Program-made: the position numbers and the translations under genes
The notes under the pieces: model-generated
The model's input: only the letters and a program-made list of their open reading frames with translations
The model's database searches: none
What the model was told of the DNA's origin: nothing
In this document: positions 1-29,151 of the stretch, in pieces
Numbering within the stretch: position 1 is the first letter of the stretch
Layout: the number at the start of each line of letters is the position of its first letter
From: a virus
Lineage: Duplodnaviria; Caudoviricetes
DNA length: 30,481 nucleotides
IMG/VR virus record: IMGVR_UViG_3300012952_000077
Coordinates: 1 to 30,481 of that record
Direction: 5' to 3' (one strand)

Positions 1-900
1 AACGAAGCACCTACTTTAGGATCGTCATTTACTGGATTCTACGTTGGTAAGATGCGTCAGTTAGATGATATATCATTTGAGTTTGATTCATTGAGATCTT
101 CCTTCAACCTTAAGCGTAGTGGTACATTCTACTCTATCGCACTGACTGAAGGTGTACAGGCAACTGAATCTATTATCGCAGATAACAATATTATTATCTC
201 ACTTAACGGTGTTATTCAGCAACCTGGAATCGGTTTTGAACTTGTTGGTTCTCGTGTCGTCTTCAAAGAAATTCCTCGTGTAGGATCTACATTTGTTGGT
301 TTCGCGTATATTGGTTCTGACGCTGACGTTACGCAGTCTGAAGTTGTTCCTCCAATTGAGGCAGGTGACCTTCTAGACATTCAAGGTGAAACAATTGACA
401 GAGAAGTTGCTGTTATTGAATCTTCTCAGACTCTGGTTACATTTGAATATATCGGATCTGTATTTGGTCGTGACGGACAAGGTGAAGCAGTTACTCTATC
501 CAATAGATTGGATGGTGTTCAGGTAACTAATCCTGGATCTGGATATACCTCACGTCCAGTTGTTAGAGTTGATAGTGCATCTGGTTTTGATGGTGCAGTT
601 AAAGCACTGGTTGGAATCAGTCGTGTTGATACAAACGCTGTTGGTTCTGGTTACAAGTATCCAAATGTAGATATTACAAATACTGTGGCAGATGATTATG
701 TCGCACCAAACCCAGCTGATTATGGTGAGGAAGCAATTTATAAAGAAGAGATTATTGACACTGACGTAGTTAATGTTACACCTGATAATCTATCTCAAGT
801 AAATAGTGGTGACATTCCTGGTCACGGTGATTCACCTGCTGCAACAGGAACTACTTTAACATCCTTTGAAATTACATCTATCTGGTCAAGTACACCATAA
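1..900 (+). CDS. gp7: C-terminal part of giant baseplate wedge protein (cyanophage gp7-like), 5'-truncated by window edge
   Basis: Frame is open from base 1 (NEAPTLGSSFTGFYVGKMRQ...), so Met at 52 is internal. LDDISFEFD..FNL, IISLNGVIQQPG, FKEIP..GSTFVGFAYIGS and VTNPGSGYTS motifs resemble cyanomyovirus gp7 C-termini; lies upstream of gp8. Confidence 0.7.
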   Translation, partial: NEAPTLGSSFTGFYVGKMRQLDDISFEFDSLRSSFNLKRSGTFYSIALTEGVQATESIIADNNIIISLNGVIQQPGIGFELVGSRVVFKEIPRVGSTFVGFAYIGSDADVTQSEVVPPIEAGDLLDIQGETIDREVAVIESSQTLVTFEYIGSVFGRDGQGEAVTLSNRLDGVQVTNPGSGYTSRPVVRVDSASGFDGAVKALVGISRVDTNAVGSGYKYPNVDITNTVADDYVAPNPADYGEEAIYKEEIIDTDVVNVTPDNLSQVNSGDIPGHGDSPAATGTTLTSFEITSIWSSTP

Positions 901-6510: not shown

Positions 6511-8043
6511 ATGGCAGCACTATTAACTGACCAGTTCAGAATATTTACAGCACAGAAATTTATAAAATCACTAGAAGGACCTGATCCTCTTGCAAGTGAC
6601 ACAACTGCTGGCGACGATAGAGATCGTCTTTATATCTTTATTGGCCGTCCCCAAGAGTGGGACAACGAAAACTCACCACCACAAGCAGTTGATTCGTTTG
6701 ACGAATTTTCGGATGCCTACGATGATATGATGTCATTGAAACGTGTTCTTGCTGCCGACACGATTCAAGTTGTACGTCGTATTGACTGGATTCCCCCAGA
6801 GCAAACTACTGGTGGATTGGGTTACACATATGACATGTACCGTCATGATTTCTCACCAACTAACACAGCATCATCTGGTGCTACTAAGTTGTATGACTCT
6901 GATTTCTATGTCGTTAACTCCAATTACCAAGTTTATAAGTGTATCTACAACGGTACTAGTCCTAGTGACCCTAATGGTAAGCCTTCTACCGTTGAACCTA
7001 CTGGTACTTCTACATCCATCATCACTACTTCTGATGGGTATCGTTGGAAATATATGTACACTATCCCTGTTGCACAGGTTCTAAAGTTTTTCTCTGCTGA
7101 TTACATGCCTGTATTCAGCGATGCATCAGTTACTTCAAACGCTGTTGCTGGAGAGATTGATACTGTTATCATCACCTCTTCTGGTTCTGGTTACAACAAT
7201 GGTACATACGATAATGTTGCTATTGCTGGAGATGGAACTGGTGGACGTGTCTCCATCGTAGTTGATGGTGGTCGTGTTATATCTGCCACTGTGACATCTG
7301 GTGGTACTGGATATTCATTCGGTAAAGTAACAGTAGACGCTATTTCTGGTATTGGTACTGGAACTGGTGGTCAAATAGACGTTATCATTCCACCTCCAGG
7401 TGGTCATGGTAAAGACCCAGTAGTGGAAGTGGGTGCTTACCGTGTTATGGTTAACGCTAAACTATCATATGATGAAGGTGCTGGTGACTTCCCGATTGAT
7501 AACGACTATCGTCGTATTGGTCTCACCACCAATCCTAAGAAGTATGGTACTACCGAACTTCTTTCTGACCTAACTCTATCTGCTGCAAGAGCAGTTATAT
7601 TCCCTACAACTTTCCAAGGTAACTTTATCCCTGACGAAACGATTACACAAACTCGTATTGTCGGTGGTCAATCTGTTACTGCAACTGGTAAAGTTATCTC
7701 ATGGAATGCAACTACTAAAGTTCTTAAATATTATCAGAACAGAGTTGATGGTATTTTCCCAGCTGTAACTGGTTCATTGAACGAGTTTGATGGTTCTAAT
7801 GCCATACAGGGTTCATCATCTGGTGCTTCTGGCGACCCAGATGTAAACTTCCCAGCCGTTCCTAACACTTCTTCTCGTGTTATTAACAATACTGAGTATG
7901 ATCTCGGTATGAGATTTACCTCTGGTTATGCAAAACCTGAGATAGAGTCTAACTCTGGTAATATTATCTACATAGATAATAGACGTACCATTAGTCGTGC
8001 TAACGACCAAATTGAAGACATTAAGATCGTCATTGAATTCTAA
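6511..8043 (+). CDS. gp8: Baseplate wedge subunit gp8 (510 aa)
   Basis: LYIFIGRPQEW, VVRRIDW, YDMY, FYVVNS.YQVYKC, DGYRWKYMYTI, YRRIGL..NP and C-terminal SGNIIYIDNR..ISRANDQIEDIKIVIEF are characteristic of T4-like gp8. Confidence 0.92.
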   Translation: MAALLTDQFRIFTAQKFIKSLEGPDPLASDTTAGDDRDRLYIFIGRPQEWDNENSPPQAVDSFDEFSDAYDDMMSLKRVLAADTIQVVRRIDWIPPEQTTGGLGYTYDMYRHDFSPTNTASSGATKLYDSDFYVVNSNYQVYKCIYNGTSPSDPNGKPSTVEPTGTSTSIITTSDGYRWKYMYTIPVAQVLKFFSADYMPVFSDASVTSNAVAGEIDTVIITSSGSGYNNGTYDNVAIAGDGTGGRVSIVVDGGRVISATVTSGGTGYSFGKVTVDAISGIGTGTGGQIDVIIPPPGGHGKDPVVEVGAYRVMVNAKLSYDEGAGDFPIDNDYRRIGLTTNPKKYGTTELLSDLTLSAARAVIFPTTFQGNFIPDETITQTRIVGGQSVTATGKVISWNATTKVLKYYQNRVDGIFPAVTGSLNEFDGSNAIQGSSSGASGDPDVNFPAVPNTSSRVINNTEYDLGMRFTSGYAKPEIESNSGNIIYIDNRRTISRANDQIEDIKIVIEF

Positions 8044-8058: not shown

Positions 8059-11000
8059 ATGCCACAGAATACCAACCTGAATGTCACTCCGTATTACGAC
8101 GATTTTGACAAGAGTAAAAATTTCTATAAAGTATTGTTCCGACCAGGATTTCCGATCCAGGCTCGTGAACTTACGACCATGCAATCAATCATGCAGAATC
8201 AGATTGAGAACATGGGTACGCACTTCTTTAAAGAAGGTGCGATGGTTATACCTGGTCAAATTGGTTATGACTTAAATGTTCAAGCGATTCTTTTACAACA
8301 AAACTTCTTAGGGGCAGACGTTGAGTTGTATAGATCACAGTTAACAGGTAAGTTAATCACTGGTGTTACAACAGGTGTTAAGGCAAAAGTACTTTATTCA
8401 ATATCATCTGAGACTTCTGATAGAGGTTATATTACACTATATGTTAAGTACATTGACTCTGCTGACGCAACAAGTACTGAAGATATTAAAACTTTTAAAA
8501 ATAATGAACAGTTACTAGCAGATGCTGATATAACTTTTGGTACTACATTGATTGAGCAGGGTTCACCTTTTGCTCAGATGTTACCAGATAATGCAAGTGC
8601 TGTTGCTTCTGCTGCATATATTAACGAAGGTGTATACTTCATTCGTGGATATTTCGTAGACGTTCCTACTGGTTATATCATTCTAGACCAATATACAAAC
8701 ACTCCATCATATAGAGTAGGACTTGAGGTATCAGAATCTATCATTACCTCTGAGGATGATCCATCTCTAAATGATAATGCTGCTGGTACATCTAACTATT
8801 CTGCACCAGGTGGTCATAGATTTAGAATTAGAACGCAATTAGTTAAGAAAGCAATAACAGATGACTCGGATAAAAACTTTATAGAATTGTTGCGTCTTAA
8901 GAATTCTAAGGTACAACAGTTTGTAGAACATACAGCATATACAGAACTTGAAAGATCAATGGCACTTCGTACTTACGAAGAGTCTGGAGACTATGCTATT
9001 GATACTTTTGATATCACAATGCGTGAGCATAAGGATGATGGATTTAATAATGGTGTATATCAGGCAGATGAATCATCACTTGCTGGTTTAAATGCATCAG
9101 AGAGTCATGTTGCTGCTGAAGTTTCACCAGGTAAAGCGTATGTAAAAGGATATAGAACTCAAACTCTATCACCAACATATGTTGATATTCCTAAAGCAAG
9201 AGATACTAATGCAGTTCAGAATACTATTATTCCGTTTGAACTTGCACAATCAGTTCTTGTTACCAACATCTATGGTTGGCCACTATTGACAGGTCCTAAC
9301 GTAACCTATAACTATCAGGTTCTTGAGTTACGTGACAACTGGAATCCTTCAGGAGAAGGAACACCTCAAGGTAATATCATTGGTTTTGCAAGATGTGCTC
9401 AATTAAGTAACGAACTTACTAATGGTGGTATTGCTAATGCTACTCAAGGTAATATGTTGCACATCTTTGACGTGCAAATGTACACAGTATTGAATACTGC
9501 TGCTGATGTATCTGCAACTCTTAATGAGACTGGAATGATCGTTAGAGGTGCATCTTCAGGTGCTATAGGATCTATTCGTTCTATTAGTACAACTACTATT
9601 CAATTGACTGATGTTAAAGGTTCTTTCCGTCAGGGTGAGCAAATTGAATTAGACGGAGTTGCATTAACATCTATTAGTGCTCTTTGGACTTTTGAATTTA
9701 CTGATACTCGTTCTGTTGTGGGACGTGCAGATTTAGCATTGAACTCAACTGTTGTATTTACAGCAGATTTACTATTGAATACTGTTGAGTTTATTGAAGG
9801 TACAAAACACAATGTTGTATTGACAGGTAGTTTACCTAATACAAAATTAACTGGATCAACAACTAACTATGCTTCGGATGTACGTCCAGGAGAAGTATTA
9901 TCTGTAGGTATGTCTGATCAGACAGGTAATAATACAATGAGAGTGTTGGGAATTACTCAGTCAGATATTAACGCTACTTCAACAAACAAGAATAGTGGAA
10001 CCAATGTTATCTACGGTACTCCAACAGTTCAGACAGTACTGTTAGATGGAAGTAAGACTGTAGGTTCAGTTGTTGATGCAGATTATGATAGAGTTGGAAG
10101 ATTACGTCCTAGAGTATTCCTTAAGAACTATCAAAATGGTAACCTTACCATTGACATGCCGAAGGAATCTATTAAGTCAATTTCTGACGAATCCTTCACA
10201 GTTTATAGAACTTACAATGCTCAAAGTATTAACAATGGTGGTACAACAATTACTCTTGGTGAGAATGAGCAGTTTGAAACATTCTCTAATGATAACTTTG
10301 TAGTAACCATTGACACAGGTGGTGGTAGTAATAACGACTACGCAGGACCTGGTACTAAGATTGACATGGAAGCTGCTGTTAATGGAGGTACTATTGCAAT
10401 TACATTTGGTGCCGATAGACAAACAGCAACCTTAACATCTCCTGGTGCTGCTGGTACTGGTCTTAAGAGTATTACTTCAATTAAAGCAACAGTTGCACTT
10501 TCTAAGTCTGTAGTACAACGTAAGATTAAAACTGCATCTAAGATGCAATGTTTATCAGTTAATAAGACTAGAACTAAGCAAGATCAACAGTTATTTGGAT
10601 TAGGATATAGTAATAAGTATGGAACTCGTATTGAAGATGAGGAAATTACATTCGGTCTAAATGACGTTTATAAGATCCATGCAGTATATGAATCACTAGA
10701 TGGTGAAGCTGCTAAGGTTCCATTTGTAACTTTAGTTGAAACAGCATTCTTTGCTACTGGAACTCTAGTTGAGGGTGGTACATCTGGTGCTCGTGCTAGA
10801 GTTGTAGACTTTGTATCATCATCTTTAAAATTATATCTTGTTGTTCTTGATGGAGAATTCATACCTGGTGAACTTGTATCAGGTGTCAATAGTAATGCAG
10901 AGGCAATCAATGCATTTGTTTCTGATGCTGATGGTGCAATTGAAGTAGGTTCTACTAATATTACAATACAATATAATCTACAACCAGGACAAGATTCTTA

Positions 11001-14000
11001 TTACTACGATGTTTCTCGTTTAGTTCGTGGAAAAGCATACTCACAACCAAGACATCAATTAGCAATTGTATTTGATTACTTTAAGCATGAGTCTTCAGGA
11101 GACTACTTTAATGCTCAGTCATATGTTGGTATAGATTATAATGAAATTCCAGATTGGAAACCTGAAGGTGGTATTATGTTCTTGCGTGATACTATTGACT
11201 TCAGACCAGGTGTTAAAGAACTTGCTAGTGGATCTGGTACAGTAGGTAATCCATATTATGTAACTTGTACTTGTTTTGACTTTGAATCTCGTGTCTTTGA
11301 CGCTACTTCAACTGTCTTTGATATTATGGATACTGGCACATCATTCCGATGTGACTTTGATTATTATCTACCAAGAATTGATAAACTATTCCTAACACAT
11401 GATGGGCAGTTCCAATTAGTTAAAGGTAAGTCAGCTGAGGAACCTCAAGAACCTGACCATATGGATGCAGCAATGCTTATGGCAGTCATTGAGCACAAAC
11501 CATATTGTTATGATCCAGAAAGAGATATTCTAGTAGAGACTGAAAATAATAGACGTTATACAATGCGTGACATTGGTAACATTGAAACTCGCTTAGATAA
11601 CGTTGAGTACTATACTTCACTATCTCTTTTAGAAACTGAGACTCAGAATGCTACTACTTACGATGAAGATGGTTTAAACAGATTCAAGAACGGTTATGTT
11701 GTTGATGACTTTACTGACCATACTGTTGGTGATATTTTAAACGAAGATTATAAAGCATCTATTGATATTGAGAATGGTTATCTAAGACCTTCTCACTATA
11801 CTAATAACTGTCCATTAGAATGTAATTTTGCTACATCAACAGGTATAGCATTAACTCCATACGATCCCGATGATCTTGATGAGTCATTAGTTGTTACTCT
11901 TCCTTATGAAAATGAGGCAATTATTAATCAACCATATGCTTCAAGACTTGAGAACGTAAACCCATTTAACGTATTCACATTCATTGGACGTGTTGATTTA
12001 CTTCCATCATCTGATGACTGGGTTGACATTAAGCGTTTACCTGCTCGTATTGAAAACGTTGAAGGTGACTTCTCACAGGTAGCAAGAGATCTTAACGTTG
12101 ATAAGAATGGATTCTCTCCTACTCAATGGACTGGATGGACAACTAACTGGACTGGTGAAAGAGTAAGATCTAGTCGTAACTTCCGTTCTAGAACAAACTT
12201 AGGTGGTGGTCGTAGACTAGGTAGATTAGGTCACGCAGGTCGTCGTCAAGGTTTATTCTATGTTCACCAACGTCGTGAATTTACAGTTACTAATAACCAA
12301 ACTCGTTTAGGTATCAGAACTCGTGTTGTACCTAAGATTACAAGGCAGTCACAGGGTGATTCAATTCTATCACAAACCAATATTCCTTGGATGAGATCTA
12401 GAAATATTCGTTACACTATTACTCGTGCTAAGCCCAAGACAAGAATGTATGCATTCTTTGATAAGAAGAAGATTACTAATTACATTACTCCTAAACTGAT
12501 TGAATTAGTTAAGAACTCAACTGAGGATGCTAGAACAAATGAAACACCATTTGTTGTTGGAGAAGTTGTTAAAGGTTTGACTTCAAACTGTCGTTTGAAA
12601 GTTCTTAGACCTAACAGTGTATATGACACTAACCCATATTCAACAAATGATGATGCACTACCAACATCATATTCATCTCAGACACCGTTGTTAAATCACA
12701 ATGCTGCACAGATGGCAAAGATTACCAATAACAAAGCAAGAGGTAATATTGCTGTTGGTGAAGTATTAGTTGGTTTGACTTCTGGTGCTCGTGCTGTTGT
12801 TAAAGATCGTCGTCTTATTACTGATAAGCGTGGATATGCTAGAGGATGTTTCTTCGTTCCACCTCCAGTTAAAGATGTTAACCCACGTTGGGCAACTGGT
12901 GTTAGAACAATTAGATTCACATCTAGTGAAAAGAACTCAATGACTCCAGGTACAGTTGATTCTTCAGCTGAAACAAACTTTGCAGCAAGAGGTACTTTAA
13001 CTACTGTACAAGAAACTATACACTCAGTTCGTGACGCTCAAGTCGTTATGGATACTGTGACAGATACTCGTACTGTTACATCTACTAGAACTGAGGTTAG
13101 ACAGATTGGTTGGTATGACCCTCTCGCACAATCATTCCTTGTTGATACTGAGGGTGGTGTATTCCTAACTGGTGTTGATATTTACTTTGGAAGTAAGGAT
13201 GATGCTATTCCTATCTCTATGCAACTTCGTTCTATGGAGAATGGTTATCCTTCTAAAGTTATCTTACCTTTCTCTGACGTTAGTTTAAACCCAGAGGATG
13301 TTGAGATATCTGATAATGCTGCTATACCTACAAGGTTTACATTCCAAGCACCTGTTTATATTAAACAGTCTATTGAATATTGTTTCGTTCTACTATCTGA
13401 CTCTAATGAATATACAGTCTGGATTTCTAGAATGGGTGATATAGAGATTGGTGGAGATAGAACTATATCTGAACAACCTTACTCTGGTGCGTTATTCAAA
13501 TCACAGAACGCATCTACATGGACTGCTGACCAGTATGAAGATTGTAAGTTTACAATTTACCGTGCGGTATTTGATACAACTGCTGGTGGAGTTGTTAAAT
13601 TTGAGAACGCAGAACTTGGAGTTGCAAATGCGGGTTCACATACTCTAGTTGAAAACCCAATTCAGACATTGAAACCTCAACAGGTTCTAACACTTGCTAC
13701 TGGTACTAACTATAACATATCAGTTGGTGCTCGTCTTTATCAGGAAACTACACTTGCTGAAGCAACTGTTACAGCATTCAATAGTACAACTGATCCAGAT
13801 ACAATAACTATTACTTCTATTAAGGGATCATGGTTATCAGGATCATTAGATAATAATGGTAATACAGTACAAGGTATCGTATCTTCTGCTGCTACTGCTA
13901 CGTTATATCTAACACACCCTGTTACAGGTACATTTACTGTTCCTAATACTTCCGATCCTTCTAATCCTATTGAAGGTGGATTTGTTGTTGGATCTTCTAG

Positions 14001-15522
14001 TGGTACTAGAGCACAGATCACAGGATTTACTGAGGGTTCAGCAGGTGTTCCTTCAGAACTAACAGTTCGTTATGTTAGTGGTGTATTTGATCCTTCTCAA
14101 GATCAGATAGACCAAGAGAATAGTACTGCTGCTGGTGCATTTGCTACTGGACACGCTAGTGGTGGTGTAACTGCTGCTGGTGATAGTGTTAATGCATATC
14201 CAGTTGCACAACCAACTTATAATAATGATGAGCGTGAGTGTTGGGTATATCATCAAAACCATGGTATGCATGACAGACAAAATAACGTTGAGATTGAAGG
14301 CATCATGTCTGAGATCACTCCAACAAGTTTGACTGCTGCTCTTGCTGCTGATTCACTTTCTATTAGTGTTGAATCTGCTGCTGGATTCCATACGGTTGTT
14401 AACGGTGTTGCTGTTTCATCATCTAACCCAGGTTACATAATGATTGAAGATGAGATTATACAGTATAGTGCAATCTCTCAAGATGGTAAGACCATAACAG
14501 TACCTACTCTATCTGCTAGAGCTGCTGCTGGAACTACTGCTGCTGCTCATGCTAATGCTACTCCAGTATTCTGTTATAACTTAGATGGTGTTCCTCTAAC
14601 AGAAATCAATAAGGTTCACACTTCTATTTCATGTCCAACTATGGACACATACATGCTTCATCTAACTTCCGTTGCCACTGATGGTATACGTGCAGGTGGA
14701 TTTGCTGGTGTTGCAACTCAGAACTTACCATTTGAAGTATTGACACCTAACATGAAGACTATGGTTCTACCTAAGACCGAACTTCGTGCTAGATGTAATA
14801 CTGTTACTGCTACATCTATGAATGATGGTAAGACAGCAAACATGACTCAGCAATCATTCATTAATGATGGTGTGTTTGAGGATATTATTCTAAACGAACA
14901 GAATTACTTCCCAACTCCTCGTATGATTTGTTCTAAATTAAATGAGGATAATGAGTTGAGTGGTGCTAAATCATTCACTATGGAATTGATAATGACTAGT
15001 GAATCTGATAATGTATCACCTGTGGTTGACCTTGATCGTTCTTCTTTGATTACTACATCAAATAGAATTAACAATCTAGTAGGCACAAGCACTGGTGGAT
15101 CTGGTTACTTAATGGAAACTGGAACCTCTGGATTCCAGACTAATAATGACTGGTCAACCCTAGCAAAGGGTGATCCAAATGAGGCTATATACATTACACG
15201 TCTAGTTAAACTTGCTACTAAAGCAACTGCTTTAACTGTGTCGTTTGCTGCTAGTAGACATTCTGATACAACTATTGGCATCTACTATAAGGTTAATCCT
15301 GTTGGATCAACTGGAAGTTTAGATGAACAACAATGGATCAATATGGGTTATCAGACTAACTATAACTCAACTGCTACAGAAGAAGAACTTTGGAAAGATT
15401 ATGAATACGAAGTTAAAGGTTTGAACTTTAACGCAATGCAAATTAAAATTGTTATGCGTTCAACAAACCAGTCTCGCGTACCATTAATCTCAGATTTCCG
15501 TGCTATTGCCCTTGCTAAATAA
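8059..15522 (+). CDS. VrlC-like / DUF4815-type large virion structural protein (2487 aa)
   Basis: MPQNTNLNVTPYYDDFD..KNFYKVLFRPG.PIQARELT, RTYEESGDY, PGKAYVKGY, YYLPRIDKL, RRYTMRDIG, RFKNG.VVDDF, DPLAQSF, LFKSQNASTW, C-terminal RAIAL; usual position directly after gp8 in cyanomyoviruses. Confidence 0.85.
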   Translation: MPQNTNLNVTPYYDDFDKSKNFYKVLFRPGFPIQARELTTMQSIMQNQIENMGTHFFKEGAMVIPGQIGYDLNVQAILLQQNFLGADVELYRSQLTGKLITGVTTGVKAKVLYSISSETSDRGYITLYVKYIDSADATSTEDIKTFKNNEQLLADADITFGTTLIEQGSPFAQMLPDNASAVASAAYINEGVYFIRGYFVDVPTGYIILDQYTNTPSYRVGLEVSESIITSEDDPSLNDNAAGTSNYSAPGGHRFRIRTQLVKKAITDDSDKNFIELLRLKNSKVQQFVEHTAYTELERSMALRTYEESGDYAIDTFDITMREHKDDGFNNGVYQADESSLAGLNASESHVAAEVSPGKAYVKGYRTQTLSPTYVDIPKARDTNAVQNTIIPFELAQSVLVTNIYGWPLLTGPNVTYNYQVLELRDNWNPSGEGTPQGNIIGFARCAQLSNELTNGGIANATQGNMLHIFDVQMYTVLNTAADVSATLNETGMIVRGASSGAIGSIRSISTTTIQLTDVKGSFRQGEQIELDGVALTSISALWTFEFTDTRSVVGRADLALNSTVVFTADLLLNTVEFIEGTKHNVVLTGSLPNTKLTGSTTNYASDVRPGEVLSVGMSDQTGNNTMRVLGITQSDINATSTNKNSGTNVIYGTPTVQTVLLDGSKTVGSVVDADYDRVGRLRPRVFLKNYQNGNLTIDMPKESIKSISDESFTVYRTYNAQSINNGGTTITLGENEQFETFSNDNFVVTIDTGGGSNNDYAGPGTKIDMEAAVNGGTIAITFGADRQTATLTSPGAAGTGLKSITSIKATVALSKSVVQRKIKTASKMQCLSVNKTRTKQDQQLFGLGYSNKYGTRIEDEEITFGLNDVYKIHAVYESLDGEAAKVPFVTLVETAFFATGTLVEGGTSGARARVVDFVSSSLKLYLVVLDGEFIPGELVSGVNSNAEAINAFVSDADGAIEVGSTNITIQYNLQPGQDSYYYDVSRLVRGKAYSQPRHQLAIVFDYFKHESSGDYFNAQSYVGIDYNEIPDWKPEGGIMFLRDTIDFRPGVKELASGSGTVGNPYYVTCTCFDFESRVFDATSTVFDIMDTGTSFRCDFDYYLPRIDKLFLTHDGQFQLVKGKSAEEPQEPDHMDAAMLMAVIEHKPYCYDPERDILVETENNRRYTMRDIGNIETRLDNVEYYTSLSLLETETQNATTYDEDGLNRFKNGYVVDDFTDHTVGDILNEDYKASIDIENGYLRPSHYTNNCPLECNFATSTGIALTPYDPDDLDESLVVTLPYENEAIINQPYASRLENVNPFNVFTFIGRVDLLPSSDDWVDIKRLPARIENVEGDFSQVARDLNVDKNGFSPTQWTGWTTNWTGERVRSSRNFRSRTNLGGGRRLGRLGHAGRRQGLFYVHQRREFTVTNNQTRLGIRTRVVPKITRQSQGDSILSQTNIPWMRSRNIRYTITRAKPKTRMYAFFDKKKITNYITPKLIELVKNSTEDARTNETPFVVGEVVKGLTSNCRLKVLRPNSVYDTNPYSTNDDALPTSYSSQTPLLNHNAAQMAKITNNKARGNIAVGEVLVGLTSGARAVVKDRRLITDKRGYARGCFFVPPPVKDVNPRWATGVRTIRFTSSEKNSMTPGTVDSSAETNFAARGTLTTVQETIHSVRDAQVVMDTVTDTRTVTSTRTEVRQIGWYDPLAQSFLVDTEGGVFLTGVDIYFGSKDDAIPISMQLRSMENGYPSKVILPFSDVSLNPEDVEISDNAAIPTRFTFQAPVYIKQSIEYCFVLLSDSNEYTVWISRMGDIEIGGDRTISEQPYSGALFKSQNASTWTADQYEDCKFTIYRAVFDTTAGGVVKFENAELGVANAGSHTLVENPIQTLKPQQVLTLATGTNYNISVGARLYQETTLAEATVTAFNSTTDPDTITITSIKGSWLSGSLDNNGNTVQGIVSSAATATLYLTHPVTGTFTVPNTSDPSNPIEGGFVVGSSSGTRAQITGFTEGSAGVPSELTVRYVSGVFDPSQDQIDQENSTAAGAFATGHASGGVTAAGDSVNAYPVAQPTYNNDERECWVYHQNHGMHDRQNNVEIEGIMSEITPTSLTAALAADSLSISVESAAGFHTVVNGVAVSSSNPGYIMIEDEIIQYSAISQDGKTITVPTLSARAAAGTTAAAHANATPVFCYNLDGVPLTEINKVHTSISCPTMDTYMLHLTSVATDGIRAGGFAGVATQNLPFEVLTPNMKTMVLPKTELRARCNTVTATSMNDGKTANMTQQSFINDGVFEDIILNEQNYFPTPRMICSKLNEDNELSGAKSFTMELIMTSESDNVSPVVDLDRSSLITTSNRINNLVGTSTGGSGYLMETGTSGFQTNNDWSTLAKGDPNEAIYITRLVKLATKATALTVSFAASRHSDTTIGIYYKVNPVGSTGSLDEQQWINMGYQTNYNSTATEEELWKDYEYEVKGLNFNAMQIKIVMRSTNQSRVPLISDFRAIALAK

Positions 15523-16061: not shown

Positions 16062-19000
16062 ATGGCAAATAGATTACAACTAAGACGAGGAGGTGCTCAA
16101 GAGTGGGCAAACGAAAACCCTACTCTAGCTCAAGGCGAAATTGGAATTGAACTTGATACGAACCGATTTAAAATTGGTGATGGTGTTAGGGGTTGGAACA
16201 CTTTGCCATATGAACGACCTATAGAATCTGTTGCTAACACAGCAAACACTCTTGTGGTAAGGGATGCAGACGGTAACTTCAGTGCAGGTTCTATTACAGC
16301 AACTGTTATCGGTAATGCTGCTACAGCATCAAGACTAGCAAACCCACGTCAGATACAGTTATCAAGTGACTTAGCAGGTTCGGGCACATTTGATGGATCA
16401 GGTAACCTTTCCATCGCTGCACAGTTACAGATTCTTACAACTCTACCTCATTATGATGGTACTACAACATCTACAGGTGACTATACAAAGGTAACAGTAG
16501 ACGCAAAAGGTAGGATTACAAATGCTTCACAACCATCTTCATATACTGCTCTTGGTTTAACAGACGTACAACCATTAGATACTGACTTAACATCTATTGC
16601 AGGTTTAACATCAACAGGATTACTTTGTAGGGCATCAGCAGGTAACATGGTTCCTAGAACCATTAACGGTTCATCTGGTAGAATATCAGTTGTTAGTGGT
16701 AGTGGTGTTGCAGGTAACCCAACGATTGACCTTCCTGATACAACTATTGCAGTAGAATCAGAATTTGTTTCAAGTACTGGTCAGTATAATATTCCATCTT
16801 TAACATCAGTTGGTGGAGATAGTCTTCCAACTGCTGCAAATATAACTGTTAACGCTACAAGATATACAGTAGACCAGTATGGTCGTTTTACATCTGCACT
16901 GACTATTCCTATTGCTACTGCTATAGAAGGAAGTAAGTATGCTGCTTATAATGCAGGAACTACATATGTACGTTATGATATTATTGAAGCTGGAAGTAAG
17001 GTCTATCAAGCAATAACAGGTATTGCTTCTGGTGGTGGAGCACCAACTCATTCAGATTCTTCTGATGCTGGTGGGTGGAGATATCTTGCTGCTGCTAAGG
17101 TAGAGCAAAAAGGTCTTGCTTCATTTGCACAAGAAGATTTTGATGTTGATGACAATGGTCATGTCAGCATTGCTGCTCAAGGTATTGATAATACTCAACT
17201 TCAAAATAACAGGTTATCATTCTCTGATAATAATACACAACAGAATTTTGAACTAGATCAAGAATTAACTATTGCTGGTTCACATCATGGATTTGATTAT
17301 CTTAATTATATCAAGATCAATGATACAAGTGGCAACCTATTATTTGGTGCTAATAATACAGGTGATGGTGGAGCTGGAGAAATTGATATTAACGTTAGAT
17401 CTTACTTCAGTGACCCTGATGTAACATTTGATGGTGCTGTTGCACAGATGATAAACAAGACAGGTGATGGAAACTTCACTCTTGGTTTATCTAATAATAG
17501 TGGTGATGCTAGAAACCTAACAATTGTTGCTGCTAACACTGGTGCTGGAACAAGTAATGTTGTTATTCAAGCAGAAGATACTGTAACTATTAATGCTACT
17601 GAAGCAACTGGTAAAGTACATGTAGAAGATGTAAGAGTACAAACCAACTACATAGCAACAACCAATGCAACAATGTATTTGGATCCAGGTGATGACCGTG
17701 CGGTCACTGGAACCGTAGTAGTAAGTGGAGATTTACAAGTAGATGGAACGACTACAACAGTTAATTCAACCACTTTACAGGTTGACGATCCTATTGTCAC
17801 TCTTGGTGGTGATACTGCACCAGTTTCAGATGACAACAAGGATAGAGGAGTTGAATTCAGATATTACGACGCAAGTGCAAAGGTTGGATTCTTTGGATAC
17901 GATGATTCTGCCACTGATCTTGGAGGACATACAGGAGCATTCTCCTTCCTCTACGATGCCACAAATACCTCGGAGGTATTCTCTGGAACAGATGCAGGGA
18001 TCATTGCGGGTAATTTAAGTCTTACAACAAATACTAACTCAACATCTAATACTACTGGAGATTTGGTAGTTGCTGGTGGTGCGGGTATTGGTGATGATGT
18101 TAATATTGGTGGTACGTTAGATGTAGATACTAACTTCCGTACTCATGGTACAAGTAGATTTGATGATAATATTGTATTCCAAGGTGCTTCTAAGACATTA
18201 TCTCTGAATAATGGTAGTGGTACAACTAAGATTCAACTTCATACTACCACAGGTAATGTTGAAATTGCTGGTATTTTAACTAACACTGGTAATGTTGATG
18301 CTAATGCAAATCTAAACGTAGCATCTCTAGTTCATTTTGAAAGTACTGATGAACCAACTGTTGCACTGAATGGTGGAACTGGTAATTGGGATATTCAATC
18401 ATCTGATTATGGTGCTGTAAAAATAGATGGTGGTGGATATGTTGCAGGTGATTGGGTGTTTGATAAAGACTTATATGTTAATGGTCTAATCAGACAGAAA
18501 GATGATACTACTGCAAACTTTAACTTAAAGAACTACCTATCTGTTCGTTATAAGTTACGTGTAGGTTCTACTGTTCAACATAATCCTTCTTATGCAGATG
18601 ATAACACATCTAACTTAAGAGTATATGGTGGTGCAGGTATTGTTCAGGATTTACATATTGGAGACGATCTATACATTGGTAAGGTTAATAGTGGAGATAC
18701 TGTTGAGTTCCAAGTACTTGGTGAATCTGGTAATACTACTATTGGTAGATCAGGAGCTGGTACTGCCTCTGTAGGAACTTTAACTGTCTATGGTGATACT
18801 ACTCTTGATAGAGATGTTGATATTACTGGTAATGTAACTGTAACTGCTAACTCAGAATTCAATGGAACTGTTGATGTAGATGCTGACTTCGCAGTTAGAA
18901 ATGGTACTACTGATAAGTTCTTTGTTGATAACGTAACTGGCAATACTAATATTGAAGGCACACTGACTGCTGATGGTCATACTGAATTAAATAGCACTCT

Positions 19001-22000
19001 TAACGTAGATAGTAATACAACTCTAGGTGGAACATTAACAGTCACAAACAACTCAGAGTTCAATGGAACTGTAGATGTAGATAATAACTTTGCAGTTAGA
19101 AATGGTACTACTGATAAATTTACAGTCGCATCTTCAACTGGTAATACAGTTATTGTTGGTGAACTGAATGTTAACTCTGCTGTTGACTTAGATAGCACTC
19201 TGAATGTAGATGCAGGAGCAACATTCCAAGATAATGTAACCTTGAACGCTGACAATAAGATGTTCAAGATCCAGACAAACGCTGGAGTTGATAAGTTTAC
19301 AGTTGATTATGATAATGGTAACACTAATATTCTAGGTACGTTAGACGTATCTCTTGCTTCTAATATTAACAATACTCTAGGTGTTACTGGTATTACATCT
19401 ATTACTAACAACACACAGCAAACCTTAACAGGATCTTATGCTGCTGATGGTTCATTACAAGTAACTGGTGGTGCAGGTATTGCTAGAGACGTAGCAATTG
19501 GTGGTAGTGCAAGAATTTATGGTAATCTAGAAACAACAGGAACTTTAACTCAGACTGATGATTCATCGTTCGCTGGTAAGGTTACTATCACAGATAGTAA
19601 GGATATCACATCCTTTGCTGATGCTCAGGTATCACTAACAACTACTGGTGGTGCACGAGTCAATAAGAATCTCTACACTGGTGGAGACTTTATTGTATAT
19701 GATCAAGTTGGAAGTCAGAATAGTTTCTTTATAGATGCTTCTACAGGTAATGCTGAATTAAGAAATAACATGCAGGTAGGTGGTAACCTAACTGTATTGG
19801 GAACCACAACTACAGTTGAAAGTACAGTTACTACTGTAGAAGATCCTGTAATGACTCTGGGTGGTGCTTCTGCTCCTGGTTCTGATGATGGTTTAGATCG
19901 TGGTATTGAGTTTAGATATTATGATGGATCCGCTAAGATTGGATTCTTTGGATGGGATAATAACCTTAACAGATATAGATTCTTAACTGATGCAACCAAT
20001 AGTGCTGAGACATTCAGTGGAACTGATGCATCATTACAAGTTGGTACACTTCAAATTACTGGTGCTGGTACTGCTCTTGACGTTGATAATAACGTAAACG
20101 TTGATGGTACTATCACAGCTGACGGACAAATAATTTCAAATGTATCATCTGGTGCTGCTTTAGTCATTCCTAACACAGTCAAGATTGCTAATCTTAACTC
20201 AGACTTGTTAGATGGTATGACAACTGCTGCTACTAACACAGCATCTACAGTTGTTAATCGTGATTCATCTGGAGACTTCTCTGCTAATATTATTACTGTT
20301 AATTCAGGGACTGGTGCAAATGCAGGTATTCAAGGTAACGCAACTACAGCAGATACTTGGAAAACTTCTAGAACTCTTACCATTGATGGTGTAGTAGATG
20401 GTTCGGTTGCTGTTACTGGTGGATCTGACTTTACGGTTACTACTACCTTTAATGATCCTGACATAGCTGCTTTAGCTGGTTTGAGTGGAACAGGTCTGGT
20501 TACCCGAACAGCTGCCAACACTTATACAGAACGTGCAATCACTGTTAGTGGATCTGGTATTGGTGTAAGTAATGGAAATGGTGTTGCAGGTAATCCATTA
20601 ATTACTATTACATCTAACTCTGCTAACTCTGCAAACAACTTAGTCATTCGTGACGCATCTGGTAATTTTGCTGCTGGTACCATTACTGCATCTCTAACAG
20701 GTAATGTAACTGGTAATGTAACTGGAGATGTCACAGGTAACGCAGACACTGCTACTGCACTTGAGACAGCTAGAACAATTGGTGGAGTATCATTTGATGG
20801 TACTGCTAATATTAACCTACCAGGCGTTAATGCAGGGGGTAATCAGGACACCTCTGGAAATGCTGCAACTGCAACTGCTCTAGCAACTGCAAGAACAATT
20901 GGTGGAACATCCTTTGATGGTACTGCTGATATTACACCTGCAACTGCTACTCAGGCAGCAAACCTAAGCAACCATGATACTGCTGATCTTTCTGAGGGAA
21001 CTAACCTTTACTATACAGAAGCAAGAGTTCAAGCAAAACTTGACAACGCATATGCTCAGTTAAAGTCTATGCTGAATAACCTTGCGACTGCATCAACATT
21101 AACACTGAACTTATCTGGAGATCCAACTCCTGGTTCTGTTGTAACTCTAGGTTCTATTACTGCTAGTGGTCTTGGTGGATTTACTGGTTCTACTGGAGTT
21201 AGCACAAGTGGTGGAACTGGATCTGGATTGACAGTTAATACTACAGTCAACGCATCAGGTGCTATAACAGGACTAGCATTGAATAACGCTGGTACTGATT
21301 ATCTAATTGGAGATGTCTTACAGATTACTAACCCTAATCTTGGTGGTGTTTCTACTCTAAACTTAGGTACATTATCAGGTGGAGTTGGTGGATTTAGTTC
21401 TGCCTCTAACGTTTCTACAACAGGTGGAACTGGATCTGGATTAACCTTTGATACTACTGTTGATGGAAATGGAAACATTACAAACCTTACAGTTAACGCA
21501 GCAGGTACAGGATATGCTAATGGAGAAACGATTACAATCACTAACGCTAATGCGGGAGGTGCTTCTACTATTGACACCCTCGTGGGTGGTACAGGATATG
21601 CGAATGGCTCTGCTATCGCAACCACTGGAGGAGGTGGATCAGGATTAACACTTGATCTTACAACTTCTAATGGTGTTGTAACTGGTGCAGTAATTAATGC
21701 TGCTGGTACAGGATACGCAACAGATGATACCATCACTATTGTTAACGCAAATGCAACTGGTGTTAGAACTCTTGGTTCTATTGCAACTGCTGGAACTGGT
21801 TATGCAGCTGGATCTGGAATTGCAACTACAACCAGTGCATCTGGAACTTCATTTACTGCTGACATTACAGTTGATGGAAACGGTGCTGTAACTGGAGTAA
21901 CTATTAATAACGATGGAACGGGATTTGTAGATAACGAAGTTATAACAATTACAAACGCAAATGCAACTGGTGTTAAGACTCTTGGAACTATCAGTGCTGG

Positions 22001-23255
22001 TGGTACTGGATATGGTTCAGGTACTGCTCTTTCAACCACAACAAATGGTGGTGGATCTGGTTTAACTGTTGACGTTACTGTTACTAACGGTGTTGTTGAT
22101 GGTGTATCAATTAACAATGATGGATCAGGATATGGAGCATCAGATGTAATTACTATTGCTAACGCTAATGGATCTGGTGTTGCTAGTCTTGGAGGTATCA
22201 CAGGTGGTACTGGATATTCAACAGGAACTGGAATTGCAACTACAACAAATGGTTCTGGATCTGGATTGACTGTTAACATTACATCTGTATCTGGTTCTGG
22301 TGCTATTACAGGTCTTACAATTAATAATGATGGATTGAACTACGCTGCTAGTAATACTATTACAGTTGCTAATGCTAACTCATCGGGTGTTAATACACTT
22401 GGTTCTATCAGTGCTGCTGCTTCAGGTTATTCTGCTGGCACAGTTAATACAACAACAAATGGATCTGGTTCAGGATTGACTGTTGCTGTTTCAGTTAACG
22501 CAGATGGAGAAGTAACTGGAGCGTCTATCGTTAACGATGGTTCTGGTTATTCAAACTCAGATACCATTACATTAACTAACGCTAATGCTAGTGGTGTTAA
22601 GACTCTTAATTCAATAATGGTCGCTGGTACTGGATACCCTGCTAGTACTACTGTAACTGGTGTTACCACAACTTCTGGTGGATCTGGAACTGGATTGACT
22701 CTTGACATTACAACCAATGCATCTGGACACGTAATAGGTGCTGTAATTAATAATGATGGATCTGGATATGCTGCTGCTGACAGTATTACGATTGCTGGTT
22801 CTGGAGATGGTAACTCAGTTACTGGTGTTGCTGCTATTCATGGTAATGCAACTACATCTGTCGGAGCAATTCATGGTAATGGTGGATCAACTTCTGTTGG
22901 TACTATTCATGGCAATGGTGCTCAGATCCCAGTTTCTGCTATCCATGGAAATGGTTGTACAATCCCTGTATCAGCTGTCCATGGTAACGGAGCAACAGTT
23001 GATGTCGGTGCTATCTTTGCTAACGCAACGATTAATACTGCTACAGTATTCACTCATGCAACCTTCGCACTATCTGATATCACAACGATGGAAGTTGGTG
23101 CAACTGTAACAGGTGGAACCTCTGGTACAACTGGAACAATTACTGCTCTGGGTGCTACAAGTGTCACTGTTGACACGGTTGATGGATTCTTCAAGGTTGG
23201 AGAAACCGTTGGTGCTAATGATGTTACTAACTTGACTATTACTTCATTCGGATAA
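16062..23255 (+). CDS. Long fibre protein (2397 aa) with Mtd_N-like N-terminus, in the fibritin/neck-adjacent position
   Basis: QLRRG..QEW..ENPTLAQGEIGIELDT..FKIGDG...WN.LPY (Mtd_N-like); KVTVDAKGRIT, GVAGNP.I, LV.RDA.GNF.AG.IT and TARTIGG.SFDGTA.I fibre motifs; G/T/N/S-rich; directly upstream of gp13. Confidence 0.85.
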   Translation: MANRLQLRRGGAQEWANENPTLAQGEIGIELDTNRFKIGDGVRGWNTLPYERPIESVANTANTLVVRDADGNFSAGSITATVIGNAATASRLANPRQIQLSSDLAGSGTFDGSGNLSIAAQLQILTTLPHYDGTTTSTGDYTKVTVDAKGRITNASQPSSYTALGLTDVQPLDTDLTSIAGLTSTGLLCRASAGNMVPRTINGSSGRISVVSGSGVAGNPTIDLPDTTIAVESEFVSSTGQYNIPSLTSVGGDSLPTAANITVNATRYTVDQYGRFTSALTIPIATAIEGSKYAAYNAGTTYVRYDIIEAGSKVYQAITGIASGGGAPTHSDSSDAGGWRYLAAAKVEQKGLASFAQEDFDVDDNGHVSIAAQGIDNTQLQNNRLSFSDNNTQQNFELDQELTIAGSHHGFDYLNYIKINDTSGNLLFGANNTGDGGAGEIDINVRSYFSDPDVTFDGAVAQMINKTGDGNFTLGLSNNSGDARNLTIVAANTGAGTSNVVIQAEDTVTINATEATGKVHVEDVRVQTNYIATTNATMYLDPGDDRAVTGTVVVSGDLQVDGTTTTVNSTTLQVDDPIVTLGGDTAPVSDDNKDRGVEFRYYDASAKVGFFGYDDSATDLGGHTGAFSFLYDATNTSEVFSGTDAGIIAGNLSLTTNTNSTSNTTGDLVVAGGAGIGDDVNIGGTLDVDTNFRTHGTSRFDDNIVFQGASKTLSLNNGSGTTKIQLHTTTGNVEIAGILTNTGNVDANANLNVASLVHFESTDEPTVALNGGTGNWDIQSSDYGAVKIDGGGYVAGDWVFDKDLYVNGLIRQKDDTTANFNLKNYLSVRYKLRVGSTVQHNPSYADDNTSNLRVYGGAGIVQDLHIGDDLYIGKVNSGDTVEFQVLGESGNTTIGRSGAGTASVGTLTVYGDTTLDRDVDITGNVTVTANSEFNGTVDVDADFAVRNGTTDKFFVDNVTGNTNIEGTLTADGHTELNSTLNVDSNTTLGGTLTVTNNSEFNGTVDVDNNFAVRNGTTDKFTVASSTGNTVIVGELNVNSAVDLDSTLNVDAGATFQDNVTLNADNKMFKIQTNAGVDKFTVDYDNGNTNILGTLDVSLASNINNTLGVTGITSITNNTQQTLTGSYAADGSLQVTGGAGIARDVAIGGSARIYGNLETTGTLTQTDDSSFAGKVTITDSKDITSFADAQVSLTTTGGARVNKNLYTGGDFIVYDQVGSQNSFFIDASTGNAELRNNMQVGGNLTVLGTTTTVESTVTTVEDPVMTLGGASAPGSDDGLDRGIEFRYYDGSAKIGFFGWDNNLNRYRFLTDATNSAETFSGTDASLQVGTLQITGAGTALDVDNNVNVDGTITADGQIISNVSSGAALVIPNTVKIANLNSDLLDGMTTAATNTASTVVNRDSSGDFSANIITVNSGTGANAGIQGNATTADTWKTSRTLTIDGVVDGSVAVTGGSDFTVTTTFNDPDIAALAGLSGTGLVTRTAANTYTERAITVSGSGIGVSNGNGVAGNPLITITSNSANSANNLVIRDASGNFAAGTITASLTGNVTGNVTGDVTGNADTATALETARTIGGVSFDGTANINLPGVNAGGNQDTSGNAATATALATARTIGGTSFDGTADITPATATQAANLSNHDTADLSEGTNLYYTEARVQAKLDNAYAQLKSMLNNLATASTLTLNLSGDPTPGSVVTLGSITASGLGGFTGSTGVSTSGGTGSGLTVNTTVNASGAITGLALNNAGTDYLIGDVLQITNPNLGGVSTLNLGTLSGGVGGFSSASNVSTTGGTGSGLTFDTTVDGNGNITNLTVNAAGTGYANGETITITNANAGGASTIDTLVGGTGYANGSAIATTGGGGSGLTLDLTTSNGVVTGAVINAAGTGYATDDTITIVNANATGVRTLGSIATAGTGYAAGSGIATTTSASGTSFTADITVDGNGAVTGVTINNDGTGFVDNEVITITNANATGVKTLGTISAGGTGYGSGTALSTTTNGGGSGLTVDVTVTNGVVDGVSINNDGSGYGASDVITIANANGSGVASLGGITGGTGYSTGTGIATTTNGSGSGLTVNITSVSGSGAITGLTINNDGLNYAASNTITVANANSSGVNTLGSISAAASGYSAGTVNTTTNGSGSGLTVAVSVNADGEVTGASIVNDGSGYSNSDTITLTNANASGVKTLNSIMVAGTGYPASTTVTGVTTTSGGSGTGLTLDITTNASGHVIGAVINNDGSGYAAADSITIAGSGDGNSVTGVAAIHGNATTSVGAIHGNGGSTSVGTIHGNGAQIPVSAIHGNGCTIPVSAVHGNGATVDVGAIFANATINTATVFTHATFALSDITTMEVGATVTGGTSGTTGTITALGATSVTVDTVDGFFKVGETVGANDVTNLTITSFG
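18849..19121 (+). repeat. In-frame DNA direct repeat, ~72-nt units 201 nt apart
   Basis: aactcagaattcaatggaactgttgatgtagat...gcagttagaaatggtactactgataa at 18849 and a near-identical copy at 19050 (NSEFNGTVDVD..FAVRNGTTDKF). Confidence 0.85.
20700..20936 (+). repeat. 12-nt tandem (GNVT) repeat followed by two ATAL.TARTIGG.SFDGTA.I units 120 nt apart
   Basis: ggtaatgtaact x2 plus a degenerate third copy at 20700-20735; agaacaattggtgga...tttgatggtactgct twice (units at ~20751 and ~20871). Confidence 0.8.
21144..23084 (+). repeat. Eight ~67-72-aa repeats (21144-22808) followed by eight 11-12-aa repeats (22809-23084) in the fibre
   Basis: Long unit TLG.I..GTGY...TT.G.GSGLT...V..G.+TG..+NN.G.GY...D.ITI.NAN; short unit GN..T..V.A(I/V)H. 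Confidence 0.9.
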
Positions 23256-24069: not shown

Positions 24070-25230
24070 ATGGCATACTCAAATTCTCCAGCATCAGATT
24101 GCAATCAGTCAGATTATAATTCTGCCTGTAGATTGAATATTAATGGTTCAGCTCAGGAAAGAAAGTTCATGGAGAACTTGGTTGTAGAGTCTATTGAATT
24201 ATATGGACAGGATGTTTATTACTTACCTAGAACTTATATTGGAAGAGATAATATACTAGACGAGATAGATAGCAGTAAGTTTGAGAATGCATATCCTATT
24301 AGAGCATATGTAAATAACGTTGATGGATGGGAAGGACAAGGAGAACTACTATCTAAATTTGGTGTTAGAATTGAGGATAAGACAACCTTTATCATTTCAC
24401 GAGAAAAGTTTACTGAGAAGGTTGATAATAATGTTACATTGAATGTTGAAGGAAGACCAAATGAAGGAGATTTAGTTTGGTTCCCCGTAACAAAACATCT
24501 ATTTGAAATAAAATTTGTAGAAGCAGAAAGACCATTTTACCAACTAGGTAAAGGTTACGTCTGGGAAATGCAATGCGAACTCTTTGAGTACTCTGATGAA
24601 GATATTGATACTGGTATTGCTGATATTGACGCTATTGAAATTGCGTTTAGTAACTCCACAAGTGTTACTATGGGTACTGGTGGGTCTGGTGATTATGTGG
24701 TTGGTGAAACCGTTATTGGTAATCTTAATACTGCTACTGGCACAGTTACTCTCAATGGTGACATCGTGGATTCTGTTACTATTACTGATGGTGGTGAGTA
24801 CTATACTTCTGCTCCTACTGTAACATTCAGTGGTGGAGGGGGATCTGGAGCAGCAGGTACTGCTATTATATCAGCTGGTGGTCTAGTAACTGGTGTAACC
24901 ATAAATACAGCAGGTACTGGATATACCTCAGCACCAACTATAACCTTTGGTAATTCACCGAAGGATGTTCAAGCAGAGGTTAAGTCTTGGGATTCTTCTA
25001 CAAGAATACTACAGATCATCAACCGTACAGGTACGTTCAATACTGCTGAGTACATCAAGGGTCAAACCTCTGGTGCAAACTGGAGTGGAGAATCTTACAA
25101 TACTCTAGACAATACCAACAGTGAAGTAGATCAGAACTATAGTTTTGAAACTGCTGATGATGACGTTATTGACTTCTCCGAAAGTAATCCATTCGGAACT
25201 ATTGGTTCAACTACTGACTTTACAATCTAA
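24070..25230 (+). CDS. gp14: Neck protein gp14 (386 aa) with inserted GSGY module
   Basis: LVVESIELYGQDVYYLPR, LSKFG, RPNEGDL.WFP...LFEIKFVE...PFYQLGK, CELFEYSDE, DFSESNPFG. Confidence 0.95.
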   Translation: MAYSNSPASDCNQSDYNSACRLNINGSAQERKFMENLVVESIELYGQDVYYLPRTYIGRDNILDEIDSSKFENAYPIRAYVNNVDGWEGQGELLSKFGVRIEDKTTFIISREKFTEKVDNNVTLNVEGRPNEGDLVWFPVTKHLFEIKFVEAERPFYQLGKGYVWEMQCELFEYSDEDIDTGIADIDAIEIAFSNSTSVTMGTGGSGDYVVGETVIGNLNTATGTVTLNGDIVDSVTITDGGEYYTSAPTVTFSGGGGSGAAGTAIISAGGLVTGVTINTAGTGYTSAPTITFGNSPKDVQAEVKSWDSSTRILQIINRTGTFNTAEYIKGQTSGANWSGESYNTLDNTNSEVDQNYSFETADDDVIDFSESNPFGTIGSTTDFTI

Positions 25231-28600: not shown

Positions 28601-28777
28601 GTGTCTCATTACACAGTTGGGTATCATACCCCACAACAGGTTAATCTAGAGATTTGTGAATATGCAGATGATGCATATTCAGCAATAGAACATAGTAAAG
28701 AGGATGTATCCGTATTAAAGGATCATCCTCATTTTGTTGACTATTGTTTTGAAACTCCGAAAGGAGTAATATTATGA
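28601..28777 (+). CDS. Small acidic His/Cys-containing protein, 58 aa, GTG start, not in the ORF track
   Basis: MSHYTVGYHTPQQVNLEICEYADDAYSAIEHSKEDVSVLKDHPHFVDYCFETPKGVIL; its stop overlaps the petE start (ATGA); resembles a small family I recall from Prochlorococcus and cyanophages. Confidence 0.75.
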   Translation: MSHYTVGYHTPQQVNLEICEYADDAYSAIEHSKEDVSVLKDHPHFVDYCFETPKGVIL

Positions 28778-29151
28778 AAAGTAAAGAACTAAAACATGAA
28801 ATTATGTGGTGGATGAGTAGACTTACAATAATGCTTACTTCGTTATTGCTTTCCTTTACATTAGCAGCTAGTGCTTGGGCTGCAGAAATACAAATGGGTT
28901 CTGATGGGAATCTAGTTTTCAATCCTTCCGAAGCAACAATTAATAGTGGTGAATCCATAACATTCGTTAACAATGATTTACCTCCTCACAATATAGTATT
29001 CATCAATGGACATGATGAACTATCTCAACCTGATCTTAACTTTATTAAAGGAGATAAAGTAAAGATAACCTTTAGCGAACCTGGAGAATATGAATTTCAG
29101 TGTGAACCTCATGCTGGAGCAGGAATGAAGGGAGTTATCCATGTTAAATAG
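28774..29151 (+). CDS. petE: Phage plastocyanin (125-aa precursor)
   Basis: Signal peptide ending AWA; MG..GNLVF.P, PPHNIVF (His 28987-28989), GEYEFQCEPHAGAGMKG.I.V type-1 Cu ligands; AAGGAG SD upstream. Confidence 0.96.
   Translation: MKSKELKHEIMWWMSRLTIMLTSLLLSFTLAASAWAAEIQMGSDGNLVFNPSEATINSGESITFVNNDLPPHNIVFINGHDELSQPDLNFIKGDKVKITFSEPGEYEFQCEPHAGAGMKGVIHVK

Follow-up and report, generated by a model that had tools for sequence, protein, structure and literature searches.

A predicted linear nest of eight homologous beta-barrels at the end of a giant virion protein of a T4-like cyanophage

The window studied here, which is the whole stretch of viral DNA that was analysed (30,481 nucleotides), is the structural region of a T4-like cyanophage, with baseplate wedge genes, a gene for a DUF4815 protein, the gp13-gp15 neck genes and the small terminase gene. 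Towards its end, an open reading frame at 28774-29151 resembles plastocyanin (petE) when judged by eye; petE is a common host-derived gene of cyanophages. Directly upstream of the neck gene gp13 lies the open reading frame of a giant protein (Table 1), which by profile (a full-length match to phrog_697, E 0, 2927 bits) and by position is the phrog_697 cyanomyovirus structural protein, T4-like GC 402. Relatives of this protein were found in 155 phage records, whose names are all Synechococcus, Prochlorococcus or "Cyanophage"; the records that were opened belong to the Kyanoviridae and carry the gene immediately 5' of gp13, and the annotations given to the relatives differ (fiber, structural or head protein). 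The end of the protein that bears the Mtd_N domain is likely the one that attaches to the virion. In T4, the same slot directly before gene 13 is occupied by wac (fibritin). The likeness is one of gene position, however, as fibritin is a coiled coil divided into segments and the cyanophage protein is five times longer and beta-rich, and no sequence match between fibritin and the 2,397-aa protein was found. According to the available sections of PMC2984593, cyanomyoviruses are without wac and other structural proteins may substitute for it.

The last 720 residues of this protein, on which Pfam found no family, are the subject of this study. As an earlier note on this DNA had described, they hold eight long repeats of 66-74 amino acids (about 21132-22808, from the translation and from an HMM that has eight matches in the protein's own record), followed by eight short segments of 11-12 amino acids (22809-23084, from the translation). 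The first seven repeats do share a linker and the eighth does end in ITIAGSGD, but the form ITI.N(A/P)N given for the shared ending was only approximate, the actual consensus being xTxxN[AP]N (QITNPN, TITNAN, TIVNAN, TITNAN, TIANAN, TVANAN and TLTNAN). The junctions are mirror-matched, again as described: the first two outgoing linkers are of the GG type and the next five of the xGV type, and on the return there are five HGN linkers and then two of the F type. Likewise, repeats 4-8 have an Asp in their second turn, and it mirrors the terminal His of return segments 5-1. Because the repeats are only 57-71% identical to one another in DNA, they are old and not a product of assembly; an assembly artefact is ruled out by this divergence (no run of identical bases exceeds 20) and by the recurrence of the 2,397-aa form across its 17-member cluster.

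Table 1. Features of the giant protein gene and of its C-terminal repeat block (positions in the window; L, long repeat; S, short return segment).
Feature	Position	Strand	Basis
Giant virion fibre-like structural protein, 2,397 aa	16062..23255	+	phrog_697; relatives annotated "T4-like GC 402"
Mtd_N domain, residues 6-42	16077..16187	+	Pfam PF18454, E 4.4e-12
Conserved segment of helical character, just 5' of the predicted host barrel	21018..21092	+	inferred from sequence
First strand of the predicted split host barrel, TLTLNLSG	21093..21119	+	model strand 3-7; single-barrel matches spanning model 1..720, 53-68 aligned residues
Long repeat L1 (basal), predicted partner S8	21132..21338	+	translation, HMM
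Long repeat L2, predicted partner S7	21339..21551	+	translation, HMM
Long repeat L3, predicted partner S6	21552..21752	+	translation, HMM
Long repeat L4 (Asp type), predicted partner S5	21753..21962	+	translation, HMM, covariation
Long repeat L5 (Asp type), predicted partner S4	21963..22169	+	translation, HMM, covariation
Long repeat L6 (Asp type), partner S3 in model	22170..22379	+	structural-alignment range 3..245
Long repeat L7 (Asp type), partner S2 in both models	22380..22586	+	ranges 70..232 and 434..593
Long repeat L8 and turn-around loop (innermost, distal), partner S1	22587..22808	+	range 139..222
Return segments S1-S5 (starts 22809, 22842, 22875, 22911, 22947)	22809..22982	+	each His-terminated
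Return segments S6-S8 (starts 22983, 23019, 23052)	22983..23084	+	ends Phe, Phe, Thr
Rest of the predicted host barrel, MEVG... to C-terminus	23088..23252	+	models, structural-alignment ranges

The earlier note had proposed that each domain sits in the last loop of the previous one and that the chain then returns to supply their final strands in reverse order, with the prediction that long and short repeats would be equal in number across homologues. We took as a block the sequence between two flank motifs, in 121 proteins (that of the window and 120 listed of 349 matches) and in 198 of 245 loci, the other 47 being left out because a flank motif was missing or they held other proteins; these 319 records, duplicates included, gave 159 distinct blocks. 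For the long repeats, the count came from an HMM in whose construction no short segment was used; for the short segments, it came from a separate profile that was trained on those same segments and gave stable counts at three thresholds. This profile replaced an earlier hand-made scorer, which had missed visible segments and found equal counts in only 82 of the 159 blocks. The prediction held in 158 of the 159 distinct blocks (318 of 319 records with duplicates), for n = 1 to 8 (nine blocks at n=1, then 15, 29, 31, 35, 30, three and six at n=2 to n=8), a match too general to be due to chance. Among cultured phages, S-RIM2 has n=1, S-SM1 n=2, P-SSM7 n=3 and P-RSM3 n=6. A motif-free measure, the length of the return against the number of long repeats, gave r=0.986 with a slope of 11.6 aa per level. 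Nests of more than eight levels were absent from the best 120 of 349 matches and from the best 120 of 1,850. In the nine blocks with n=1, the flanks enclose a single long repeat that is joined through a short loop to a single short segment, and these blocks thus define the complete domain as a long repeat plus a short segment. This corresponds to L8 plus S1 in the window, where the profile of the one-repeat homologues covers residues 2179-2259 contiguously.

The sole exception, P0050, has four long and three short repeats and comes from one contig. Of its first 140 block residues, 139 are the same as in P0123, a 4/4 member of its cluster, and its last 110 residues all agree with those of P0073 and P0074, which are 3/3 proteins; by these identities it is a single-crossover chimera, natural or assembled. 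In P0242, one repeat is without its central hairpin and four return segments are nonetheless kept, possibly through a deletion or an assembly error.

The counts also bear on a different reading of the block, in which the long repeats would be normal domains in tandem, each of which might take over the first strand of its successor, and the HGN segments would form a separate solenoid or a trimeric metal-binding beta-structure. Five consecutive repeats of 11-12 residues that end in His do resemble a solenoid or a metal-bound fibre tip, for which T4 gp37 is the analogy. In such an arrangement, however, the two counts should vary independently, yet they match almost everywhere, and one segment is enough to complete the domain where n=1.

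The order of pairing was approached from the sequences themselves. The Asp of the second turn and the His of the segment end agree in mirror order in 604 of 630 domains, as compared to 102 of 630 in forward order, and the linker types agree in mirror order at 502 of 516 junctions, figures that come from related sequences and in which count is confounded with position. When repeats and segments of the window were compared by similarity, the mirror order ranked in the top 0.38% of 40,320 orders; over the blocks, it beat the forward order in all 6 with n=8 and in 25 of the 30 with n=6, and was not favoured at n=5 (15/35) or n=7 (0/3). Mutual information was 0.195 for the mirror order, 0.194 and 0.153 for the mirror order shifted by plus and minus one, and 0.130 for the forward order, so that the first two are not separable by this measure. 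Couplings learned from contiguous domains of other proteins favoured the mirror order in 132 of 134 blocks, and in 90 of 134 after 9 fibre-like proteins had left the training set, the window then ranking in the top 3.7%. The weakness of some of these register tests is a point in favour of a separate solenoid, and sequence comparison by itself supports the reversal better than the exact register. We take the register to be fixed by the contiguous tip together with the equal counts.

Structures were predicted with AlphaFold2 for the three inner levels (contiguous 22176-22910, 77 sequences) and for the whole block (100 sequences), and the topology was read from the first and last aligned residues when the models were structurally aligned to single barrels 43-80 residues long. 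The inner model (pLDDT 93.4, pTM 0.79) is all beta and its three return segments are strands. Its 50 structural matches fall mostly into three ranges: 15 span about 1-245 (start of L6 to end of S3), 27 about 70-232 (L7 to S2) and 5 about 139-222 (L8 to S1), the other three being two matches inside L6 and one poor longer match. None of the 50 had the ranges 1-222 (L6-S1) or 139-245 (L8-S3). The best whole-block model had a pLDDT of 87.3 (four others 68-71; pTM 0.52) and is weakest at the turn-around (block residues 571-580, pLDDT 63); its ranges include 434..593, which is L7 plus S2, and 1..720 with 53-68 aligned residues. By these ranges, the proposed pairing of repeat k with return segment 9-k holds for the levels that were read (6, 7 and 8), and that of levels 1-5 is predicted from the counts and covariation. 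An Asp-His contact is also predicted inside each distal domain. The suggestion that TLTLNLSG and the downstream flank are two halves of one module found support as well, since the 1..720 ranges join both into one barrel; the first strand and the C-terminal 57 residues are thus predicted to form one host barrel, with the nest inserted within it. The best match of this host barrel (Z 6.6-6.8) is to residues 766-842 of a 1,030-residue chain of the T4 baseplate, which we take to be gp7 from its length. An independently predicted structure of the relative from P-SSM3 compares with a TM of 0.74 but an rmsd of 11. Neither the block nor the unit profile had a significant sequence match in the PDB, Foldseek gave no match to the PDB at E<=0.001, and the ESM Atlas returned unnamed clusters, the nearest named family, PF09215 at 0.85, being a lead only.

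Based on these results, we infer that the block is very probably a nest in which eight small homologous beta-barrels follow one another linearly, each placed in the last loop of the previous one and closed by one returning strand. The nested, out-and-back reading of the earlier note is thereby supported overall, in a predicted structure of which levels 6-8 were read. The model ranges, in joining long and short units, add to the evidence against tandem domains followed by a solenoid, and that reading is largely refuted and highly improbable. A second alternative keeps the pairing and moves it between chains: the returning strands would complete the barrels of a neighbouring chain, and one stitched bundle would be formed rather than separate arms. 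The shaft of the protein, with repeats typical of trimeric fibres, and its Mtd_N domain speak for this arrangement (from such repeats, we presume the shaft to be trimeric), and the equal counts and mirror covariation would fit it equally well. The single-chain models nevertheless satisfy the pairing at high confidence, and we regard strand swapping as very unlikely.

The depth of the nest has changed often. On a tree of the flanks (FastTree, 154 of 159 rows), n changes at least 33 times, as compared to 96-101 in the first five shuffles; cassette swapping may inflate this number, the floor of which is seven for eight states. Clustering of 674 repeats gave the architectures BDC, BDAC, BBAAC, BBAAAC, BBAAAAC and BBAAAAAA, in which the base and tip types are constant and type-A levels are inserted between them; all 57 cases of type C are tip domains, below which lie 0-4 domains of type A. 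It is thus mid-nest that depth changes, and growth requires additions to both sides of the tip, at two sites, as the earlier note had argued in proposing that expansion takes place at two distant sites. As a possible mechanism, co-infecting genomes would undergo a double crossover that is out of register, one crossover falling among the long repeats and the other among the short, and one such event would add or remove one level. A single crossover would yield a mismatched product of the kind seen in P0050; such products are rare, and folding would remove those with unequal counts.

The nest cassette occurs in two protein families besides phrog_697. With three long and three short repeats and the same linkers, it is inserted in the DUF4815 protein in S-CAM22 and in ACG-2014g; the window's own DUF4815 orthologue (8059-15522) has no such repeat. 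In S-CAM22 (L084) and ACG-2014g (L085), the nest takes up residues about 507-745 of the translated loci and has the same tip type. P0148, a protein of 1,809 aa of a T7-like kind (Phage_nozzle, PF25675), has many barrel copies, and one more copy has a three-level HGN-type nest placed within its hairpin loop. With this nozzle protein, the cassette seems to cross phage families. Its presence in unrelated hosts favours a self-contained unit over one that is completed by neighbouring chains.

Barrels of this kind were also seen outside the cassette. In the window, a single copy is inserted in a gp8-like wedge protein (7150-7392) and another in the neck protein gp14 (24763-24954), where it splits a motif like that of the host barrel. 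A baseplate wedge protein (2971-6477) has half-repeats of the same motif on both sides of a YHYH domain, which suggests further nesting, and YHYH is also present at 910-1764. By eye, P0209 (839 aa) apparently has four to five levels of nesting that run through the same barrel's central hairpin loop, with first halves on the way out and second halves on the way back, and this would be a second insertion site. The same barrel repeats, without a covering Pfam family, are found in P0156, P0166, P0203, P0205, P0162 and P0173; this set takes in proteins that carry T9SS tails and PA domains, a sheath protein from Nostoc, one protein named for the flagellar hook and others named for multicopper oxidase.

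On the virion, the N-terminus would anchor the protein near the neck and a long shaft would bear the host barrel at its end; the whole nest, inserted in this C-terminal barrel, would project from it with domain 8 outermost. The nest may serve as a stiff spacer arm, with a length set in whole-domain steps, that holds a binding surface off the virion, a role we consider possible, if slightly short of evenly balanced. The middle levels are seen as spacers because one domain type is confined to the tip. Given the same nest, a less probable use, the main rival to this one, is that each barrel is a weak binding site for the host surface, particles or virion fibres, and that depth tunes avidity and not reach. 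Domain I of T4 gp18 protrudes and binds the baseplate and retracted fibres (available sections of PMC3004832), and the repeat barrel turns up in numerous surface proteins and virion proteins, both of which would suit avidity; the tip-only type, however, suggests a special distal role, with spacers beneath.

More broadly, the case is about evenly balanced that a barrel like gp18 domain I has become a self-inserting block, which would build telescopic arms of selectable length for marine phages, their depth changing from 1 to 8 through single two-site recombination events, their register kept by folding, and the cassette moved among fibre, DUF4815 and podovirus nozzle proteins. If this is true, the nests would be a class of repeats that tandem-repeat detectors and domain parsers misread. 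Repeat proteins usually grow by tandem duplication; here, matched gains would have been made at two sites, many times, in an abundant marine phage family. The natural series of depths from 1 to 8 could serve to study how deeply nested chains fold, a question that arises because the outer barrels cannot close before the inner ones exist, and also to ask if arm length affects host range or adsorption. As both ends of the rod are basal, it can be placed in the loop of another protein, as the homologues show, and a loop-insertable rod is a spacer property sought by protein designers.

Among solved structures, the best match to the repeat unit is domain I of T4 gp18 (Z 5.3-5.9, below the tool's decisive level; rmsd 2.5-3.2 over 75-77 aligned residues, 18-27% identity). 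As described in the available sections of PMC3004832 and PMC6088184, gp18 (PDB 3FO8/3FOA) is also a "Russian doll" of nested insertions in a T4-like virion protein, and its domain I (98-188), a six-stranded beta-barrel, is itself an outward-pointing insert (PMC3004832). The same sections mark the difference: in gp18, four different folds are nested, their number is fixed and domain I is used only once (PMC3004832, PMC6088184). Domain I also has an added alpha-helix, whereas both repeat models are without a helix. The Pfam family of this domain (PF22639, curated cut-off 27 bits) had no match on the window protein, and elsewhere it appeared below its cut-off, at E 0.013 for one of the 15 aligned units and at 23.3 bits for P0148. 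With hhalign, gp18 domain I gave a probability of 30.8% over 22 columns, and among 11 T4 proteins only gp18 97-118 matched the repeat unit (E 5e-4). These weak hints, all under the family cut-offs, agree with the likeness to gp18 domain I.

In the literature consulted, mainly openly accessible and in its main texts, we found no description of this phage nest, and the available sections of PMC3797505 contain nothing relevant to it. The closest architecture is that of Si3 in the cyanobacterial RNA polymerase subunit RpoC2 (PDB 8EMB), which the available sections of PMC10895346 and PMC13114784 describe as eight domains in a six-level recursive insertion. As predicted for our block, one small beta domain is recursively inserted into itself, giving an elongated out-and-back body with both ends basal. 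Recursively nested homologous domains of this kind are predicted in the block from the counts, the n=1 domain and the model ranges for levels 6-8. In direct comparison, 8EMB aligns to the whole-block model at Z 3.7 over 41 residues (range 1..696) and is absent from the matches of the repeat-only model. From the same sections, Si3 appears to differ in its domain, a sandwich-barrel hybrid motif; its continuous and split copies are mixed, and the whole is branched, with 8-10 domains. The predicted cyanophage nest, in contrast, is strictly linear, eight deep plus the host barrel, with one closing strand per level and a depth that ranges from 1 to 8. Eight levels and a host would, if true, exceed the six-level Si3, the example of complex nesting in a 2026 domain-insertion survey. 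Recursive nesting was thus already known from Si3 and gp18, and what the models would add is its greater depth, its strict linearity and its variable depth.
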